From Escherichia coli O127:H6 str. E2348/69 (GTDB lineage: Bacteria; Pseudomonadota; Gammaproteobacteria; Enterobacterales; Enterobacteriaceae): a stretch of DNA of 64,000 nt. The stretch lies in assembly GCF_000026545.1 (NCBI RefSeq), contig NC_011601.1. One strand, written 5' to 3'. Made by a program: the position numbers and the translations under genes. Shown one piece after another: positions 43,966 to 51,897 of this stretch (position 1 is the first letter of the stretch; every line of letters starts with the position of its first letter). The notes below the pieces were generated by a model. That model was not told the origin of the DNA. It saw only the letters and a program-made list of their open reading frames with translations, and made no database searches.

Positions 43966-44484
43966 TCAGAATGCAGACGTATCCTGGAACAGACCTACTT
44001 TCAGGTCGTTGGCGGTATAGATCAAACGACCATCAACCAGCACTTCGCCATCAGCTAGGCCCATAATCAGACGACGGTTAACTATGCGTTTAAAGTGAAT
44101 ACGATAGGTCACTTTTTTCGCCGTCGGCAGCACCTGGCCTGTGAATTTCACTTCACCTACGCCCAGCGCGCGACCTTTACCTTCGCCGCCCAGCCAGCCG
44201 AGGTAGAACCCTACCAGCTGCCACATTGCGTCCAGGCCCAGGCATCCCGGCATAACCGGATCGCCGATAAAGTGGCATCCGAAGAACCACAGATCCGGAT
44301 TGATATCCAGCTCTGCTTCAACATACCCTTTGTCGAAGTTACCACCCGTTTCGGTCATTTTGACCACACGGTCCATCATCAGCATGTTTGGTGCTGGCAA
44401 TTGCGGGCCTTTAGCGCCAAACAGTTCACCGCGACCAGAGGCAAGAAGGTCTTCTTTTGTATAGGATTCGCGTTTATCTACCAT
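43966..44484 (-). CDS. fabA: 3-hydroxydecanoyl-ACP dehydratase/isomerase FabA (172 aa)
   Basis: ORF-track entry extends to 44682; ATG at 44484 (minus) gives [23 protein letters not shown]; active-site region [13 protein letters not shown]. Confidence 0.95.
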
Positions 44485-44522
44485 GTTCTCTGTAAGCCTT
44501 ATTTTATTGAAGCACGCAGGAT

Positions 44523-44558
44523 AGCTAACACGTGTACGCTGAACAAGTCCGATCAGTT
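44523..44558 (-). promoter_or_regulatory. fabA promoter operators: FabR palindrome (44523-44540) and FadR site (44541-44558)
   Basis: Minus strand reads AACTGATCGGACTTGTTC (FadR-like) directly followed by AGCGTACACGTGTTAGCT (perfect 18-bp palindrome, FabR-like), 40-75 nt upstream of the fabA ATG. Confidence 0.65.
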
Positions 44559-46313
44559 CGGAATAAACCAGTTCAGCCAACGTAATGGCCATGGAAAACG
44601 GTGACGTCCTTCCTGTTGCGATGCTTGTGCGATACGTTCCTGGATGGTTTGCATCAGCGTCGTTTGGCCTTCGCCATCCCACACCAGATTTAATAATAAC
44701 GGCAGTGCGTCAGTCACATCGTCTACTGCCCAGATGGTGAATTTGTCTTCTTCTACCGCTTTCACCAGTTCACTGTGAAGACTTAAATGGCGAACGTTAG
44801 CTGTGGGGATAATGACACCTTGTTTCCCCGTTAACTCACGTTGCTGGCAAATAGCAAAGAAGCCTTCGATTTTCTCATTTAAACCACCGACTGGCTGGGC
44901 GCGACCGAACTGATCGACTGAACCTGTGATAGCGATACTCTGATTCACCGGCACATCGGCGAGGGCGCTTATCAGGGCGCAGAGTTCAGCCATCGAGGCA
45001 CTATCGCCATCCACTTCACTGTATGACTGCTCAAATGTCAGCGATGCTGAGAAGGGGATCTGTTGCTCAAGCTGTAGTTCCGACATCAGGAACGCTTGCA
45101 TGATCATCATCCCTTTTGCATGGATATTGCCGCCAAGCTCCGCTTTGCGTTCGATGTCGGTGAATTCACCATCGCCAATATGTACAACGCAGCTAATGCG
45201 AGAAGGTTCGCCAAAAGCGCGTGGATGACCCGGAAATTCAATGACCGAAAGGGCGTTAATTTGCCCGATGCGTTCGCCTTCGGTTTCAATCAGGATTTGC
45301 TCCTGAAGGATCTCATCCTGCATGCGTTCAGCGAGGAAACCTTCGCGCCATTCACGCTGCTGTAGCATTAAGTTTAGCTGCTCGCCGGAGAAGGTGTCGC
45401 CATCACACAGGGAGGCGACCTCTTGACACTGGCGGAGGATCCACTGCGGGCTAAGCGGAAGTGTTTCTTGTTCACCAGTGTAGCGTGCTGCTTCGCGGAT
45501 AAGCACCGGCCAGGCATCCGCTCCCGGTGCAGGTAAGTGATTATGTCTGGCGGTAAATGTCACCCAGCGACACCACTGGCTTACTGACTCCGCATCGACA
45601 ATCTGCAGAGTATCTTCAAATTCGCTATAAATAGTCTGCTCTGAAAGCTCTGGTTCTATCTCCTGGAAATCAGCCAATGATTCGCGTTCGCCTACCAGAA
45701 TGACTTTCAGCTTCAATGGCATCGAAGGCACAGAGACGGGGAGAGGGCGCGACTCATCAAACGCAACCCAGTCAAAACGCTCGCGGTTAACGATATTTTT
45801 CAGCCGCATCCACAGCAGAGGTTGCGCCAGCAGTGTACGCAAAGAGATGATGAGAATACCGCCATTTGCCTGATGCACCAGACCAGGCTGCAGGGTAATA
45901 TCGCCATTAAACTGACGCAGGCAGCCAAAGAGTTGCTCTGCTTCTACCCAGTCGGCAGCGACAACTTGCGTTAAAGTCGCAAAATTATCATCTGCACTCA
46001 CTGCGTGACGTAAGCGGATGGTGTGGCCGGAAACCTCATAGTGACCGCCCACCAGTTGGCCTGCATCGCTTTGTAGCGTACGCGCGGCATCAGCAATAAG
46101 ATTCAGATACTCAGACTCTTCCGGGGCCTTCGCCAGCATAAAAGAGGAGGATGCTCGCGTATGCAGCAACTGCTCCAGCGCAAATTGCAGTCGCGGTTGA
46201 GTATCACTGAATAAAGGATCGTTTTCGTCAATCAAATGTGGCTGAGCAAATATTTCCTGATAGCTATCGGTATCAGGAACCAGGTCACGCCATGCAAGTT
46301 TCGTAATGGTCAA
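44553..46313 (-). CDS. ycbZ: Lon-like protease YcbZ (586 aa)
   Basis: 586-aa ORF; C-terminal Lon protease domain with putative Ser-Lys dyad ([17 protein letters not shown] ... GGLNEKIEG); no canonical Walker A seen in the translation. Confidence 0.9.
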
Positions 46314-46498
46314 AGTTGATGTTTTTTAGTCTGTTGTCAAAGCCGCGATTATACCGTAACCGGCACTGCAGCACACGTAGAAAGCAACGACAATACTCCT
46401 GGCATGGGCGTTAAAGCTCACAGGATGGAGATTCTTTTCTTCACTGGCCTAAAAAGCTGATATTCTGTAAAGAGTTACACGGTAACATTGAGATCGCT

Positions 46499-46951
46499 AT
46501 GAAATATCAACAACTTGAAAATCTTGAAAGCGGTTGGAAATGGAAGTATCTGGTGAAGAAGCACCGCGAAGGGGAGTTAATCACCCGTTACATAGAAGCC
46601 AGTGCCGCCCAGGAAGCCGTCGATGAGTTGCTCTCGCTGGAAAATGAACCCGTGCTGGTAAATGGTTGGATTGACAAGCATATGAATCCGGAACTGGTCA
46701 ATCGCATGAAGCAGACCATTCGGGCCAGACGGAAGCGCCATTTTAATGCAGAACACCAGCATACGCGCAAAAAATCGATCGATCTGGAATTTATCGTCTG
46801 GCAACGTCTGGCTGGCCTTGCGCAGCGTCGCGGTAAAACGCTTTCTGAAACGATTGTTCAGCTGATTGAAGATGCGGAAAACAAAGAGAAATACGCGAAT
46901 AAAATGTCTTCTTTGAAGCAGGATCTGCAGGCATTGCTGGGTAAGGAATAA
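46499..46951 (+). CDS. matP: Ter macrodomain organizer MatP (150 aa)
   Basis: 150-aa ORF starting [26 protein letters not shown]. Confidence 0.9.
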
Positions 46952-46983
46952 CTGTCAAAAGTCAGTTCAATTTACTAAAGGCG

Positions 46984-47014
46984 AAAAAAAAACCCCGCAG
47001 CTGCGGGGTTTTTC
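46984..47014. terminator. Bidirectional rho-independent terminator between convergent matP and ompA
   Basis: Hairpin ccccgcagctgcgggg (46993-47008) flanked by A9 upstream and T5 downstream. Confidence 0.85.
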
Positions 47015-47028
47015 TACCAGACGAGAAC

Positions 47029-48069
47029 TTAAGCCTGCGGCTGAGTTACAACGTCTTTGATGCCTTTAACTTCGATCTCTACGCGACGATCCGGAGCCAG
47101 GCAATCGATCAGTGCAGCACGCTGTTTCACGTTGTCACAGGTGTTGCCAGTAACCGGGTTGGATTCGCCCATACCACGTGCGGAGATTTTGTCTGCCGGG
47201 ATACCTTTAGAGATCAGGTAATCAACAACGGACTGAGCACGACGCTCGGACAGAGCCTGGTTATAAGCGTCAGAACCGATGCGGTCAGTGTAACCCAGAA
47301 CAACTACGGAACCGTCTTTCGGATCCAGGTTGCTCAGCTGGCTGTACAGCTGATCCAGAGCAGCCTGACCTTCCGGTTTCAGGGTTGCTTTGTTGAAGGT
47401 GAACAGAACGTCAGACTTCAGAGTGAAGTGCTTGGTCTGTACTTCCGGTGCCGGAGCTGGAGCCGGAGCAACTACTGGAGCTACTTCGCCCTGACCGAAA
47501 CGGTAGGAAACACCCAGGCTCAGCATGCCGTTGTCCGGACGAGTGCCGATGGTGTGTGCGTCACCGATGTTGTTGGTCCACTGGTATTCCAGACGGGTAG
47601 CGATTTCAGGAGTGATCGCATACTCAACACCGCCAGCGAAGACCGGAGAAACGCCGGTGTCGTGGTTTTTACCATAAACGTTGGATTTAGTGTCTGCACG
47701 CCATACCATACCACCCAGACGAGTGTATACGTCCAGATCGTCAGTGATTGGGTAACCCAGTTTAGCGGTCAGCTGAACGCCCTGAGCTTTATATGCACCG
47801 TTTTCAACGCTGCCTTTGTATGGCATACGACCTAACCAGTCATAACCCATTTCAAAGCCAACATACGGGTTAACCTGGTAACCACCAAAAGCACCAGCGC
47901 CCAGTTGGTTTTCATGGGTCGGACCATTGTTAGGAATAAAACCAGTGTCATGGTACTGGGACCAGCCCAGTTTAGCACCAGTGTACCAGGTGTTATCTTT
48001 CGGAGCGGCCTGCGCTACGGTAGCGAAACCAGCCAGTGCCACTGCAATCGCGATAGCTGTCTTTTTCAT
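47029..48069 (-). CDS. ompA: Outer membrane protein A OmpA (346-aa precursor)
   Basis: ORF-track entry extends to 48156; ATG at 48069 (minus) gives [21 protein letters not shown] signal peptide; APAPAPAP hinge; C-terminal OmpA-like peptidoglycan-binding domain. Confidence 0.96.
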
Positions 48070-48202
48070 TTTTTGCGCCTCGTTATCATCCAAAATACGC
48101 CATGAATATCTCCAACGAGATAACACGGTTAAATCCTTCACCGGGGATCTGCTCAATATTAACTCTACCGATATCTTCGGCTTATGCCGAGCACCCCTGG
48201 CG
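48070..48202 (-). promoter_or_regulatory. ompA long 5' untranslated leader (approximate extent)
   Basis: Non-coding stretch directly upstream of the ompA ATG; leader length (~133 nt) from memory of E. coli ompA, not measurable from sequence alone. Confidence 0.4.
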
Positions 48203-48424
48203 ATGTAAAGTCTACAACGTAGTTGAAAACTTACAAGTGTGAACTCCGTCAGGCATATGAAAAAAAAGTCTTGTATAAGGTACGTTTAATCTTTTTTGTC
48301 AGCGACAATTTACAGAAGAAAATCGCGGAAACCGCTTCAGACAAGCCTCCGCAAGGAAAATTAGTCACGACTGAAAGCATTGGCTGGGCGATAAAAAAAG
48401 TTCCAGGATTAATCCTAAATTTAC

Positions 48425-48934
48425 TTAATGATACAAATTAGAATGAATTTTTAGCCCGGAAAGTTGTCTCGTTGCGTGAGAGGATGCGCTTACCGGACGC
48501 ATAATAAACCCCATAGCGTTACCTTCATTTGCCGCATCAACAAGTTCAGCATGCTCTTCTGCAGTCAAATCATCTGCCAACCAACCGATCACCACGCTGT
48601 AATTGCCCGTGCGTAAAGCGCGAACCATTGACTCCACGGTGTGGCAAGGGGAGAGCTGGCTAATCTGCATTACTTTCGTTAAGGGTAGCCCAGATGCCTG
48701 AACCCATTCGCGACTCAGTTTTTGTTGCGGTGTTAACCAGAGTTGCCAGCGCGATTGCTGACCGAGTTGCTGTAACAATGGCAACAGTAGAAGTTGCGTC
48801 ATCATGGGCTGATCTTCGCGATAGACAACTTCACTGATAAGCCCGGCTGTAGTGTTTTCCGTAGAGACACGCGCAATTTTGCTTGCTGCGGATGAGAACG
48901 ACGAATCACGATGTGCATAGCCTGAAGTGTACAT
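48425..48934 (-). CDS. sulA: SOS cell-division inhibitor SulA (169 aa)
   Basis: ORF-track entry extends to 48991; ATG at 48934 (minus) gives [19 protein letters not shown]; LexA box immediately upstream. Confidence 0.95.
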
Positions 48935-48955
48935 AATCAATCCAGCCCTGTGAGT

Positions 48956-48975
48956 TACTGTATGAATATACAGTA
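48956..48975 (-). promoter_or_regulatory. LexA (SOS) box in the sulA promoter
   Basis: Perfect palindrome TACTGTATGAATATACAGTA (CTGT-N8-ACAG consensus), 22-41 nt upstream of the sulA ATG. Confidence 0.9.
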
Positions 48976-49151
48976 TATCCAGTGACGACAAAGATCAACC
49001 CTATTTTCGGAAAGAGCCTCGCAAATTTTGTCGTTGGTGGCGGGAAAACATAAATTAATCTTGCCCCTTAAGAATAAGTTGCCTATTTTCGTAGTTAACG
49101 GATCCGTTAATGTGAATCATTCTTTTATGTTATGATTTTAAAAGGAATTTT

Positions 49152-49781
49152 ATGAAAAGCCTCTCCTATAAGCGGATCTATAAATCACAAGAATACCTGG
49201 CAACGTTGGGCACAATTGAATACCGATCATTGTTTGGTAGTTACAGCCTGACCGTTGACGACACGGTGTTTGCGATGGTTTCTGATGGTGAGTTGTATCT
49301 TCGGGCTTGTGAGCAAAGTGCACAGTACTGTGTAAAACATCCGCCTGTCTGGCTGACATATAAAAAGTGTGGCCGATCCGTTACCCTCAATTACTATCGA
49401 GTTGATGAAAGTCTATGGCGAAATCAACTGAAGCTGGTGCGTCTGTCGAAATATTCTCTCGATGCAGCGCTGAAAGAGAAAAGCACGCGCAATACCCGGG
49501 AAAGACTGAAAGATTTGCCCAATATGTCTTTTCATCTGGAAGCGATTCTCGGGGAGGTGGGGATTAAGGATGTACGGGCGTTACGTATACTTGGGGCAAA
49601 AATGTGTTGGTTGCGACTGCGGCAGCAAAACTGTCTGGTGACAGAAAAGATTCTGTTTATGCTTGAAGGGGCCATTATCGGCATTCATGAAGCTGCGCTC
49701 CCGGTGGCACGCCGCCAGGAGCTTGCAGAATGGGCTGACTCTCTTACGCCAAAACAGGAGTTTCCTGCGGAACTTGAGTAA
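49152..49781 (+). CDS. sxy: Competence regulator Sxy/TfoX (209 aa)
   Basis: 209-aa ORF starting MKSLSYKRIYKSQEYLATLGTIEYRSLFG (TfoX N- and C-domains); 3' end overlaps the convergent yccS. Confidence 0.9.
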   Translation: MKSLSYKRIYKSQEYLATLGTIEYRSLFGSYSLTVDDTVFAMVSDGELYLRACEQSAQYCVKHPPVWLTYKKCGRSVTLNYYRVDESLWRNQLKLVRLSKYSLDAALKEKSTRNTRERLKDLPNMSFHLEAILGEVGIKDVRALRILGAKMCWLRLRQQNCLVTEKILFMLEGAIIGIHEAALPVARRQELAEWADSLTPKQEFPAELE

Positions 49782-51897
49782 TCTGGCGTTGCAGACGACC
49801 AATCTCTGGCAGTAATGCAATCAATAACCCAACTTGTTGTACGACCAGAGGTTCTTTGCTGTCTGCCCGTGGTTCAAGTTGCTGCATCCGCTGTTTCAGG
49901 CCAGCTAATGCCTGATTGACGCGTTCTTCATCAGCAGGTTGATGATGTAGCGCGTCATCAACATAGCAAACTGCGTCATCAAGAAACGCCAGAATTTCAG
50001 GATTAGTTAACTGCTCCCGGTGAGCACCGAGGGCTGAGATATAGCTGGTAAACGTATGGTTAAGGCACAGCAACCGAAACGCGGCTTCGCGAATTTGCGG
50101 GGTAACGTTCGGTTCGCTGGACATATTTGATACCACCGACGCCAGTTCAGCATCACGGTTGTGTGCATCGCGGCGGGCAATACGATACGCCAGACGGTTA
50201 TCACGCCCCTGATGGTATTGCTCCAGTATGGCATCGAGATACCGACAGTTGGCCTCGGTGGCGCGTTCGAGCATTCGCGGCAGATTGCGAAACTTCCAGT
50301 CAGGCCAGATGTAGCTCACTGCAGCCCACGCAATGGCACAACCAATCAGCGTATCGATTACGCGAGGTAACGCCACTTCAAAACCTTCACCCAGCAAGTT
50401 GAAACACAGTAGCACCAAAAGTGTGATGAACATCGTTGCATGGGCGTATTGCACGTTACGGAAGGCAAAAAAGAGCACGCCGGTAATAACCAGCAGCACC
50501 AGCTGCCCTTCCAGTGATGGCACAAACCACAGCACAGGAATGCCAATTGCGATACCTACCAGCGTACCAATAATCCTTAACTTCAGGCGGTGGCGCGTGG
50601 CGTTATAGTTTGGCTGGCAGACAAACAAACTTGTCAGCAAGATCCAATACCCGTGATGCATTCCGGTTATCTGAATGATGGCGTAGCCGAAGCACAACAC
50701 CAGCGACATTCTTACTGCATGACGGAAGAGGGCGGATTCCGGCGTGAAGTGACGGCTAAGACGCAGCCAGATATCACTCAATCCGTGCGGGCTGTCATCA
50801 GCGAGCTCATTTTCGTCATTATTATGGGGCAGTGCCTGGGCCTGTTCTGATTCAATTGTTGCCAGTTGGGCATCAATGGCACGTAAATTGTTCAGTAAAA
50901 ATCCCAGTGTTTTGAGTAAATCAGCAGGAGCGCCGTTATCGCGCATCCGCTCCAGCGCAGCATCAATATGCGTAAAAGCGCGCTCAAAATGCGGATCATG
51001 TTGATAAGGCTGACGCAGCAAAATACAGCGTGACAGTTGCTGGCACGCCTGGCCCTGCATCGACATCAGCCGCTGAAAACGGAACAGCACGTCGCTGTGG
51101 CGAAAATGTTCACGCAATGTTTGATATTGAATATGAGAAGAGCTGGCACGCTCGTGAATATCCTGTGCGACAAAGTAATAATGCAGTGTGCGACGCGTTC
51201 CCCGTTGACCACGATCGCCACGTAAGCGGGTCAGCAGCGAGAGTTTCGTCTGATTCAATGTCGCCATCAGCTGACCGTTGGCGAGAGCCAAATCGTACAG
51301 CGGTGCCTGGCTTTCATCTTCAATATCAGGATCAAACATGCGCGACTTGAGCTCAAGATAACGCGCCAGTTGTTCATAGCAACGCGCCAGGTTGTCCTGC
51401 AGCGGGCGGACCGGGAACAGCAGATGACCAATAAGTGTCAGGACGTTGTACCAGACGGCACCGGCCAGAAGATACATCGGCTGCTGATACCAGTGCTCAT
51501 ACAGTGATGTTCCCAACATAGTGTAAATGGCGATCAGCAATGCACCGAAGGCAATTGTTGCATAGCGTTGACCCAGACCGCCGAGCAAAATGAAGCCGCT
51601 GGTAGAGAGCGTTAAGCCAATCGCAAATAGCCAGGGCCAGGGAAACAGCAATTCTACTGAGGCTGAGGCGATAAAAAAGCAGAACAGCGTAATGATGAGG
51701 TTACGCAAACGTCCCGCCAGTCGGTCATCGAGATCGGTCAGCGCCGCTGCCACCATCCCCAGCGTCAGCGGAATCGTCAGTTTTACATCACCCAGCCACC
51801 ACGGAAACGCTGTGGTTCCACAAAGCGCAATAAAAATACGCGCGTAATACAGCCAGGCGCTGTTCCAGGTATAGCGTTTGAGCAAAGGACTTAGCAT
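49744..51897 (-). CDS. yccS: Inner membrane protein YccS (about 717 aa)
   Basis: Large polytopic membrane ORF; the track gives 720 aa (start 51906, MAFMLSP); recalled protein starts at MLSPLLKRYTWN (51897). The true start is uncertain by 9 nt. Confidence 0.8.
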   Translation of the reverse strand: MLSPLLKRYTWNSAWLYYARIFIALCGTTAFPWWLGDVKLTIPLTLGMVAAALTDLDDRLAGRLRNLIITLFCFFIASASVELLFPWPWLFAIGLTLSTSGFILLGGLGQRYATIAFGALLIAIYTMLGTSLYEHWYQQPMYLLAGAVWYNVLTLIGHLLFPVRPLQDNLARCYEQLARYLELKSRMFDPDIEDESQAPLYDLALANGQLMATLNQTKLSLLTRLRGDRGQRGTRRTLHYYFVAQDIHERASSSHIQYQTLREHFRHSDVLFRFQRLMSMQGQACQQLSRCILLRQPYQHDPHFERAFTHIDAALERMRDNGAPADLLKTLGFLLNNLRAIDAQLATIESEQAQALPHNNDENELADDSPHGLSDIWLRLSRHFTPESALFRHAVRMSLVLCFGYAIIQITGMHHGYWILLTSLFVCQPNYNATRHRLKLRIIGTLVGIAIGIPVLWFVPSLEGQLVLLVITGVLFFAFRNVQYAHATMFITLLVLLCFNLLGEGFEVALPRVIDTLIGCAIAWAAVSYIWPDWKFRNLPRMLERATEANCRYLDAILEQYHQGRDNRLAYRIARRDAHNRDAELASVVSNMSSEPNVTPQIREAAFRLLCLNHTFTSYISALGAHREQLTNPEILAFLDDAVCYVDDALHHQPADEERVNQALAGLKQRMQQLEPRADSKEPLVVQQVGLLIALLPEIGRLQRQITQVPQETPVLA

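Follow-up and report, generated by a model that had tools for sequence, protein, structure and literature searches.

The window analysed here, a stretch of 64,000 nucleotides from Escherichia coli O127:H6 str. E2348/69 (NC_011601.1), contains the chromosomal ompA gene of EPEC E2348/69. The coding sequence, which specifies the precursor of outer membrane protein A, occupies positions 47029..48069 on the minus strand, as do all features described below, and consists of 346 codons and a TAA stop according to its open reading frame and translation. It starts with an ATG at 48069 behind the ribosome-binding site AACGAGG, and the reading frame is uninterrupted. In RefSeq, a 'porin OmpA' (WP_012578862.1, also deposited as CAS08491.1) is annotated at 1007029-1008069 of NZ_LT827011.1; subtracting 960,000 from the coordinates of that record gives those of the window, and the two intervals coincide. 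A 375-aa open reading frame beginning with a TTG at 48156 was regarded as a mechanical extension, and the RefSeq start at 48069 was used instead. The genes matP, ompA, sulA and sxy follow one another in the order and orientation found in K-12 and in the RefSeq annotation of E2348/69, and the neighbours of ompA (ycbZ, matP, sulA, and sxy) are like those in K-12.

The product is a standard two-domain OmpA, with a Sec signal peptide, an eight-stranded outer-membrane barrel, a proline-rich hinge, and a periplasmic peptidoglycan-binding domain. Its residues 1-346 matched positions 1-358 of the NCBIfam equivalog NF008071 'porin OmpA', scoring 671.5 bits where the cutoff is 277. The signal peptide comprises codons 1-21 (48007..48069); residues 1-45 are identical to those of K-12, and the cleavage site was taken from K-12 OmpA, whose signal peptide has 21 residues (PMC9560509). 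The N-terminal eight-stranded beta-barrel with its four extracellular loops, mature residues 1-171 (47494..48006; limits according to PMC9560509), was identified by PF01389 (264.9 bits, residues 23-195 of the precursor) and by the solved barrels 1BXW, 1QJP, 1G90, and 2GE4, which matched at E values of about 1e-114. The C-terminal periplasmic OmpA-like (peptidoglycan-associated) domain, mature residues 189-325 (47032..47442), was identified by PF00691 (84.9 bits, residues 222-317) and by the solved C-terminal domain 2MQE (1.3e-90). The function of the protein is predicted as for OmpA generally, and nothing suggests a different mode.

Signals on both sides of the gene were also considered. The 5' untranslated leader, which carries the ribosome-binding site, was assigned to 48070..48202 from the sequence and its alignment with K-12, and has one C fewer than the K-12 leader at about -77. 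The transcript start presumably lies where likeness to the K-12 leader (GCCAGGGG...) places it. At the 3' side of ompA, a candidate intrinsic terminator, CCCCGCAGCUGCGGGG followed by U9, was located at 46984..47008 by fold and sequence; it is palindromic and so faces matP too. The RNA fold of the hairpin was -22.1 kcal/mol (z = -3.6), none of 200 shuffles folded equally well, and the hairpin with its U9 run probably acts as a terminator. A consensus scan for promoters and terminators gave counts not above those of shuffles and overlooked this terminator because of its loop rule of 3-8 nt; the region was folded separately. A search at the Rfam gathering thresholds across window positions 44000-51000 returned no family.

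Ungapped alignment with ompA of K-12 MG1655 (b0957, P0A910; Liao allele (I, alpha), Nielsen pattern E2) revealed 26 differences in 1041 nucleotides (97.50% identity), distributed over 18 synonymous and five non-synonymous codons, and 341 of the 346 residues are those of K-12 OmpA. Length, locus, domains, signal peptide, and loops 2-4 are alike in the two proteins, and the five substitutions in mature numbering are N25P, I93V, A175V, N203T, and G251A. An earlier sequence-only reading had stated that this OmpA differs from the K-12 sequence. The alignment, a deterministic comparison in which chance plays no part, agrees with that statement: there is no exact identity, the differences found are exactly the five motifs that were quoted, and the K-12 protein to which it referred corresponds to MG1655, to the K-12 sequence printed in PMC6995065, and to the solved E. 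coli OmpA structures, all of which have N at position 25. The same reading had placed the differences at loop and hinge positions, which is correct for N25P (loop 1) and A175V (linker), but not for I93V in a transmembrane strand or for N203T and G251A in the periplasmic domain.

Residues were mapped according to Liao et al. (2017), after Pautsch and Schulz and Marcoux et al. (PMC5413513). N25P, in precursor codon 46 (47932-47934), changes extracellular loop 1; residue 25 occupies the centre of this loop, in a stretch (22-28) that is reported to be 'highly mobile' in the crystal (PMC5413513). I93V (codon 114, ATC to GTA, 47728..47730) is located in a transmembrane strand near its periplasmic end (PMC5413513). 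A175V (codon 196, GCA to GTA, 47482..47484) falls where the proline-rich linker or hinge, residues 173-188, begins, while N203T (codon 224, 47398..47400) and G251A (codon 272, 47254..47256) are known polymorphisms of the periplasmic C-terminal (dimerisation) domain (PMC5413513). Natural variation has been recorded at all five positions, namely 25 N/D/P, 93 I/V, 175 A/V, 203 N/T, and 251 G/A (Liao 2017, PMC5413513).

Most of the divergence from K-12 is background of the lineage, in which E2348/69 is related to UTI89, NU14, and Nissle. Divergence from K-12 in the genes flanking ompA ranges from 0% (rmf) to 3.5% (fabA), and the 2.5% of ompA, which sits within this range, is therefore ordinary. 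Twenty-one of the 26 nucleotide differences are common to the ompA genes of UTI89, ATCC 11775, STEC299, and Nissle 1917. N203T and G251A occur in all four of these comparators, I93V is common to UTI89, STEC299, and ATCC 11775, and V175 is present in STEC299 and Nissle 1917 but not in UTI89 or ATCC 11775. These 21 differences, including I93V, N203T, G251A, and, in a subset of the comparators, A175V, represent ordinary lineage divergence. The combination V175/T203/A251 fits the 'VTVA' linker/dimerisation pattern of Nielsen, which was reported in NMEC and UPEC of phylogroup B2 only (PMC6995065), and the C-terminal class gamma of Liao 2017, which is V/T/A according to the (III, gamma) column of their table (PMC5413513).

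The loop-1 difference has another character. E2348/69 ompA differs from the alleles of UTI89 and ATCC 11775 by 6 nt and from that of STEC299 by 5 nt over 1041 nt. Five of these differences are found at gene positions 132, 135, 136, 137, and 138, and only 0-1 elsewhere. In codons 44-46 they turn TTC ATC AAC (or GAC) into TTT ATT CCT, with synonymous changes in F23 and I24 and replacement of all three bases of codon 46. When six differences were placed at random over 1041 sites, five fell inside 7 bp in none of 2,000,000 trials. The patch at gene positions 132-138 (47932..47938) carries, at five of its seven bases, the long-class state, unlike every short-class allele compared.

Long-class alleles encode a 350-aa OmpA with P in loop 1, DNI in loop 2, and ANVPGGASFKD in loop 3, and were represented here by Nissle 1917, SK1144, and O121 RM8352. 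We take this class to be the ompA2 of Power 2006. It matches patterns II/III of Liao and B/C/F of Nielsen, and the short class matches patterns I/IV/VII of Liao and A/D/E/G of Nielsen. E2348/69 OmpA has the short-class loop 2 SVE, loop 3 SNVYGKN without the insertion, H in loop 4, and a length of 346 rather than 350 aa, so that DNI and ANVPGGASFKD are absent; its residue 25 is P, not the short-class N or D, and is encoded by the long-class TTT ATT CCT. The three long-class alleles have exactly TTTATTCCT and then depart from E2348/69 at positions 156, 171, and 174, and their differences continue through loops 2-3 to position 403 and include a 12-bp insertion. The single terminator-like scan match inside ompA (47942-47959) is a product of the T-rich loop-1 patch and was judged to be due to chance, since the same string occurs in all long-class alleles.

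The two parental types can be specified closely. The STEC299-type short allele (Nielsen string G4, DSVEVS--VY----NYHMVTVA) is the same at 1036 of 1041 nt and alike in loops 2-4, V175, and T203/A251, but has D in loop 1 where E2348/69 has P. The UTI89/ATCC 11775-type short allele (Nielsen string A1) is the same at 1035 of 1041 nt in UTI89 and alike in loops 2-4 and T203/A251, but has N in loop 1. The long allele of Nissle 1917 (Nielsen string C4) is identical to E2348/69 at positions 1-155, including P25, and again from 404 onward, with V175, T203, and A251; it differs by 25 substitutions and the 12-bp indel within 156-403, where it has DNI, I93, and a loop 3 four residues longer. With STEC299 and Nissle 1917 as parental types, the informative sites divided cleanly: the 5 at or before position 138 were all Nissle-like, and the 25 from 156 to 403 were all STEC299-like (p = 7e-6). 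The whole gene can be composed of Nissle-type positions 1-155 and STEC299-type positions 139-1041 with zero residual difference. In the notation of Nielsen it reads PSVEVS--VY----NYHMVTVA, between G4 and C4 (PDNIIA--VPGASFDYHMVTVA). P25 is accordingly attributed to intragenic recombination and not to divergence, because the five nucleotide changes of the 7-bp patch are identical to the long class. E2348/69 ompA is thus very probably (about 0.88) a lineage backbone with a recombinant junction, formed by homologous recombination of long- and short-class alleles.

The 3' breakpoint is confined to gene positions 139-155 (47915..47931), as the sequence from position 156 (CAT) onward is of the short class. 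One breakpoint in this interval would join the long-class loop 1 to the short-class loops 2-4. Among the comparator strains there were no class-informative sites from -909 to +131, so the 5' boundary cannot be placed, and beyond position 403 both parental types are identical. Two histories, which differ in tract length and in the direction of transfer, therefore fit equally well: a short-class allele may have received a patch of at least 7 bp, or a long-class allele may have received at least 248 bp with loops 2-3. The 910-bp upstream flank of another carrier of the allele (L012) has 1 difference from Nissle 1917 and 3 from STEC299, a small margin. The donor may be any enterobacterial allele with the same 7-bp string, not necessarily one from E. 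coli.

The distribution of the allele was investigated in 5,426 complete RefSeq E. coli genomes, which were screened with BLAST probes and not by full allele extraction, a procedure that mosaics on very divergent backbones could escape. Identity of 100% over ompA and a 24-kb block was found only in three E2348/69 records (NZ_CP059840.2, NZ_LT827011.1, and NZ_LT903847.1), all with the identical junction, and the next best matches of this region were NU14, UTI89, PMV-1, and similar strains with 99.3%. A 90-bp junction probe was exact only in these three records, with 96.7% as the next best value, and a 161-bp probe from loop 1 to loop 2 was likewise exact only in E2348/69 records (next best 96.9%). 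Across the 5,425 genomes that matched the 90-bp loop-1 probe, 3 were exact, 2,050 fell at 95-99% (top 96.7%), and 3,372 at 90-95%; the middle group is called long class from the members examined, Nissle 1917, SK1144, and O121 RM8352. A further probe count of 2044 genomes at 99% or more was not accepted as a count of mosaics but attributed to partial long-class alignments, and among the 30 matches listed only A30 was full-length.

Beyond the complete genomes, the exact E2348/69 OmpA protein was present on 93 contigs in a collection of 15 billion proteins, and was indexed in 164 blocks of an assembly collection, among which are isolate assemblies from NCBI and a scaffold from a gut metagenome. 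Four carrier loci were examined, and the ompA DNA was identical to that of the window in 4/4; isolate assemblies with identical ompA are GCA_900450255.1, GCA_014146945.1, and GCA_043615525.1. Two carriers (L011 and L012) have 14-17 differences from the window in their flanks, nearly all on the sulA side, which indicates that the allele is not confined to one laboratory stock. In published panels the combination is missing: each P25 isolate among the 78 typed by Liao 2017 has the DNI loop 2, with a correlation between P and SVE of rho = -0.81, and their Table 3A has no (P, SVE, ...) row (PMC5413513), while the 25 patterns that Nielsen distinguished in 399 ExPEC include none with both P and SVE (Table S3). 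The surface pairing of P in loop 1 with SVE in loop 2 and SNVYGKN in loop 3 is rare in nature.

These results also bear on the lineage and the allele type proposed in the sequence-only reading. Its suggestion of a non-K-12 E. coli lineage is substantiated by the 100% identity of ompA and 24 kb with the E2348/69 records alone. Typing against published ompA allele sets, which it had recommended, recovers each of the five positions as a known polymorphism but not the combination of P25 and SVE, which is absent from the sets of Liao 2017 and Nielsen. The loop-1 change cannot serve as the lineage marker that it was taken for, as residue 25 is N or D in the nearest alleles (UTI89, ATCC 11775, and STEC299) and P25 belongs to the 7-bp long-class patch.

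Other hybrids of this kind exist. Variants of the K-12, UTI89, and SNFDG-type OmpA proteins that carry P25 were designed and then looked up exactly, and all were found, with their identities confirmed, on 136, 7, and 6 contigs, respectively, compared with at least 1000 for each parental allele; the contigs are mostly from metagenome assemblies, may include chimeras, and were not used as frequency estimates. In the DNA of these mosaics the long-class state persists through 156/171/174 and the breakpoints, which vary, lie beyond; owing to these different breakpoints they are considered independent of the E2348/69 event. Strain A30, a baboon isolate with a complete genome, combines P25 and SVE with the loop 3 AHNNVTGESEKN. 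A30 and the K-12-type protein with P25, ENO1937030.1, resemble E2348/69 in joining a long-class loop 1 to SVE, but they have other backbones and the long-class state through 156/171/174, so that their breakpoints differ and the events are independent; A30 also has W129. BHUCD02, likewise among the complete genomes, carries a multi-hybrid allele (P, DVE, ANVYG), though its assembly is possibly reference-guided. Recombination between loop 1 and loop 2 of ompA is recurrent but rare. The same mechanism was described by Chen et al. for mosaic ompA: in the parts of the preprint available to us, local recombination reshuffles the variable regions of ompA in L1, L2, and L3, and sub-groups within three major OmpA groups are traced to 'shorter-fragmental recombination events' (bioRxiv 10.1101/2021.09.21.461324). 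In those parts E2348/69 is named for OmpF only, and its junction between loop 1 and loop 2 is not described (bioRxiv 10.1101/2021.09.21.461324).

Other origins of the patch have to be weighed against recombination. If the five residues had simply accumulated as point substitutions of a diverging lineage, with no recombination inside ompA, the distance of 2.5% from K-12 within the 0-3.5% of the neighbours would be in keeping with this, and four of the five substitutions and most of the synonymous changes are indeed common to the closest comparator alleles. The fifth substitution does not follow them. UTI89, ATCC 11775, and STEC299 have TTC ATC AAC/GAC at this site, the five changes are packed into 7 bp with 0-1 elsewhere, all five are the long-class state, and the probability of such clustering is below 5e-7, which makes plain divergence of the lineage very unlikely. 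A single complex event, such as template switching or error-prone repair, could instead have rewritten codons 44-46 of a short allele de novo, arriving at the long-class sequence by chance or through selection for proline. The minimal tract of only 7 bp, which came without a co-transferred flanking long-class marker, would suit such an event, as would the fact that position 25, where N, D, and P all occur naturally, is a hotspot (PMC5413513). Selection for proline, however, would not call for two of the changes, which are synonymous and at third positions of the adjacent codons, and the patch reproduces exactly the state found in about 38% of E. coli genomes (2,050/5,425, the 95-99% probe band). 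In addition, P25 with SVE on other mosaics with different breakpoints (A30 and the metagenomic contigs) indicates that class exchange does occur in this interval, and a mutational origin is accordingly so improbable that we give it little weight.

It might also be supposed that the junction is an artefact of assembly or sequencing, in which reads of two ompA types were joined. Several of the other sequences with P25 and SVE derive largely from metagenome assemblies, in which mixed strains may give chimeras, and the BHUCD02 allele resembles the outcome of a reference-guided assembly. The E2348/69 junction itself is identical in three separate complete genome records of the strain and in the isolate assemblies GCA_900450255.1, GCA_014146945.1, and GCA_043615525.1, and the protein has been deposited under two accessions (CAS08491.1 and WP_012578862.1), so the chance that it is a chimera is practically negligible. 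Homologous recombination between the two allele classes remains the preferred origin of the patch. A 7-bp patch, if minimal, is shorter than typical recombination tracts.

The sole surface change in comparison with the common short alleles is the proline at the tip of loop 1, and known effects of this region give an indication of what it may do. A difference between N and D at residue 25, in alleles that are otherwise identical, altered the surface charge and the sensitivity to neutrophil elastase (PMC9560509). The combination of OmpA loop variants determines infection by Gp38-bearing phages, and in in-silico models loop 1 (F44 of the precursor, two residues from codon 46) contacts the adhesins of narrow host range (PMC12032242); the AlphaFold models of that study predict this contact for the 'type 2' Gp38 phages FL12, FL18, and FL20. 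It is plausible that P25 affects how phages, colicins, or host factors recognise loop 1. Colicins U and Y reportedly recognise this loop. The association of OmpA loop variation with phage and serum resistance, raised in the sequence-only reading, is plausible but putative for this allele. A broader proposal, that very short gene-conversion patches, possibly of 7-24 bp, move single loop tips between the classes and that the E2348/69 lineage has kept P25 on an otherwise short-class surface for changed recognition by a loop-1-dependent phage, colicin (U/Y), or host factor, is doubtful at present. If it is true, the E2348/69 allele is a natural single-loop swap that parts the effect of P25 from the background of DNI and the long loop 3, to which it is otherwise almost always linked.

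The gene, the protein sequence, all five polymorphic positions, and the mosaic manner in which ompA evolves through local recombination are already documented; the present analysis adds the recognition of the loop-1 difference as a recombinant patch, which makes the E2348/69 allele a rare hybrid between the long and the short class. The overall importance is small, and the finding is ordinary. Its practical consequence is that the loop-1 difference should not be taken as a lineage marker. In published allele panels P25 always occurs with DNI, and such panels therefore cannot isolate the effect of residue 25. E2348/69, a standard laboratory strain of EPEC, has P25 together with SVE and the short loop 3, and its allele could help to separate out what residue 25 contributes to phage, colicin, neutrophil-elastase, or adhesion phenotypes.

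The long-class loop-1 patch of the window ompA, which carries P25, creates a T-rich run (TTTTATTCCT) that immediately follows a weak 5-bp hairpin (CCAGT...ACTGG), and a consensus scan accordingly returned a terminator-like match inside the gene (47942-47959, minus strand). This match is probably meaningless, because the number of terminator-like matches in the scan was not above that in shuffled sequences and the same string is common to all long-class alleles. The ompA 5' leader, a well-studied regulatory leader, contains a C-run at about 48146 (gene position -77), which is composed of four C (GATCCCCGGTG) in the window, UTI89, STEC299, Nissle and SK1144 and of five C in K-12 and O121 RM8352; it is a 1-nt length difference at the lineage level.

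Hybrid OmpA proteins combining P25 with short-class sequence were designed and looked up as exact proteins, and the matches were found mainly in metagenome assemblies (contigs L013-L030). The breakpoints of these ompA genes differ from contig to contig, the pattern expected of chimeras assembled from strain mixtures, and caution is needed when rare mosaic alleles are tallied in protein catalogues derived from metagenomes. On one of these contigs, L018, sulA (635-1204) was called as 189 aa vs. 169 aa. Two further alleles were encountered in complete genomes: a frameshifted long-class ompA pseudogene (L033, NZ_OZ197100.1, 882-1932), and a multi-hybrid ompA with P25, DVE, ANVYG, N149 and L161 in BHUCD02 (L032, NZ_CM183444.1). 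The BHUCD02 chromosome is close to that of MG1655 in length, and its ompA could be either a real multiple recombinant or an artefact of reference-guided assembly.

Variants private to E2348/69 were observed to cluster at 48882-48981, a segment comprising the 5' end, leader and operator of sulA (CDS 48425-48934, minus strand). The LexA box reads TACTGTATATTCATACAGTA in the window vs. TACTGTACATCCATACAGTA in K-12 and TACTGTACATTCATACAGTA in Nissle, and just upstream, close to this box, GGATG is changed to GGATA. The cluster further includes the loss of one base from the leader, where CACAGGGGC becomes CACA-GGGC, and, within the coding sequence, the substitution S10D, in which codon 10 is changed from TCT to GAT. 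A 291-bp probe for the cluster was matched exactly in three of 5,426 genomes, all of them E2348/69 records, and the next best match among these genomes was 99.0%. Two other loci with the same ompA allele as the window, L011 and L012, are without this cluster of sulA variants. The cluster may have been imported in a second small recombination event, and SOS repression of sulA could be altered by these changes.
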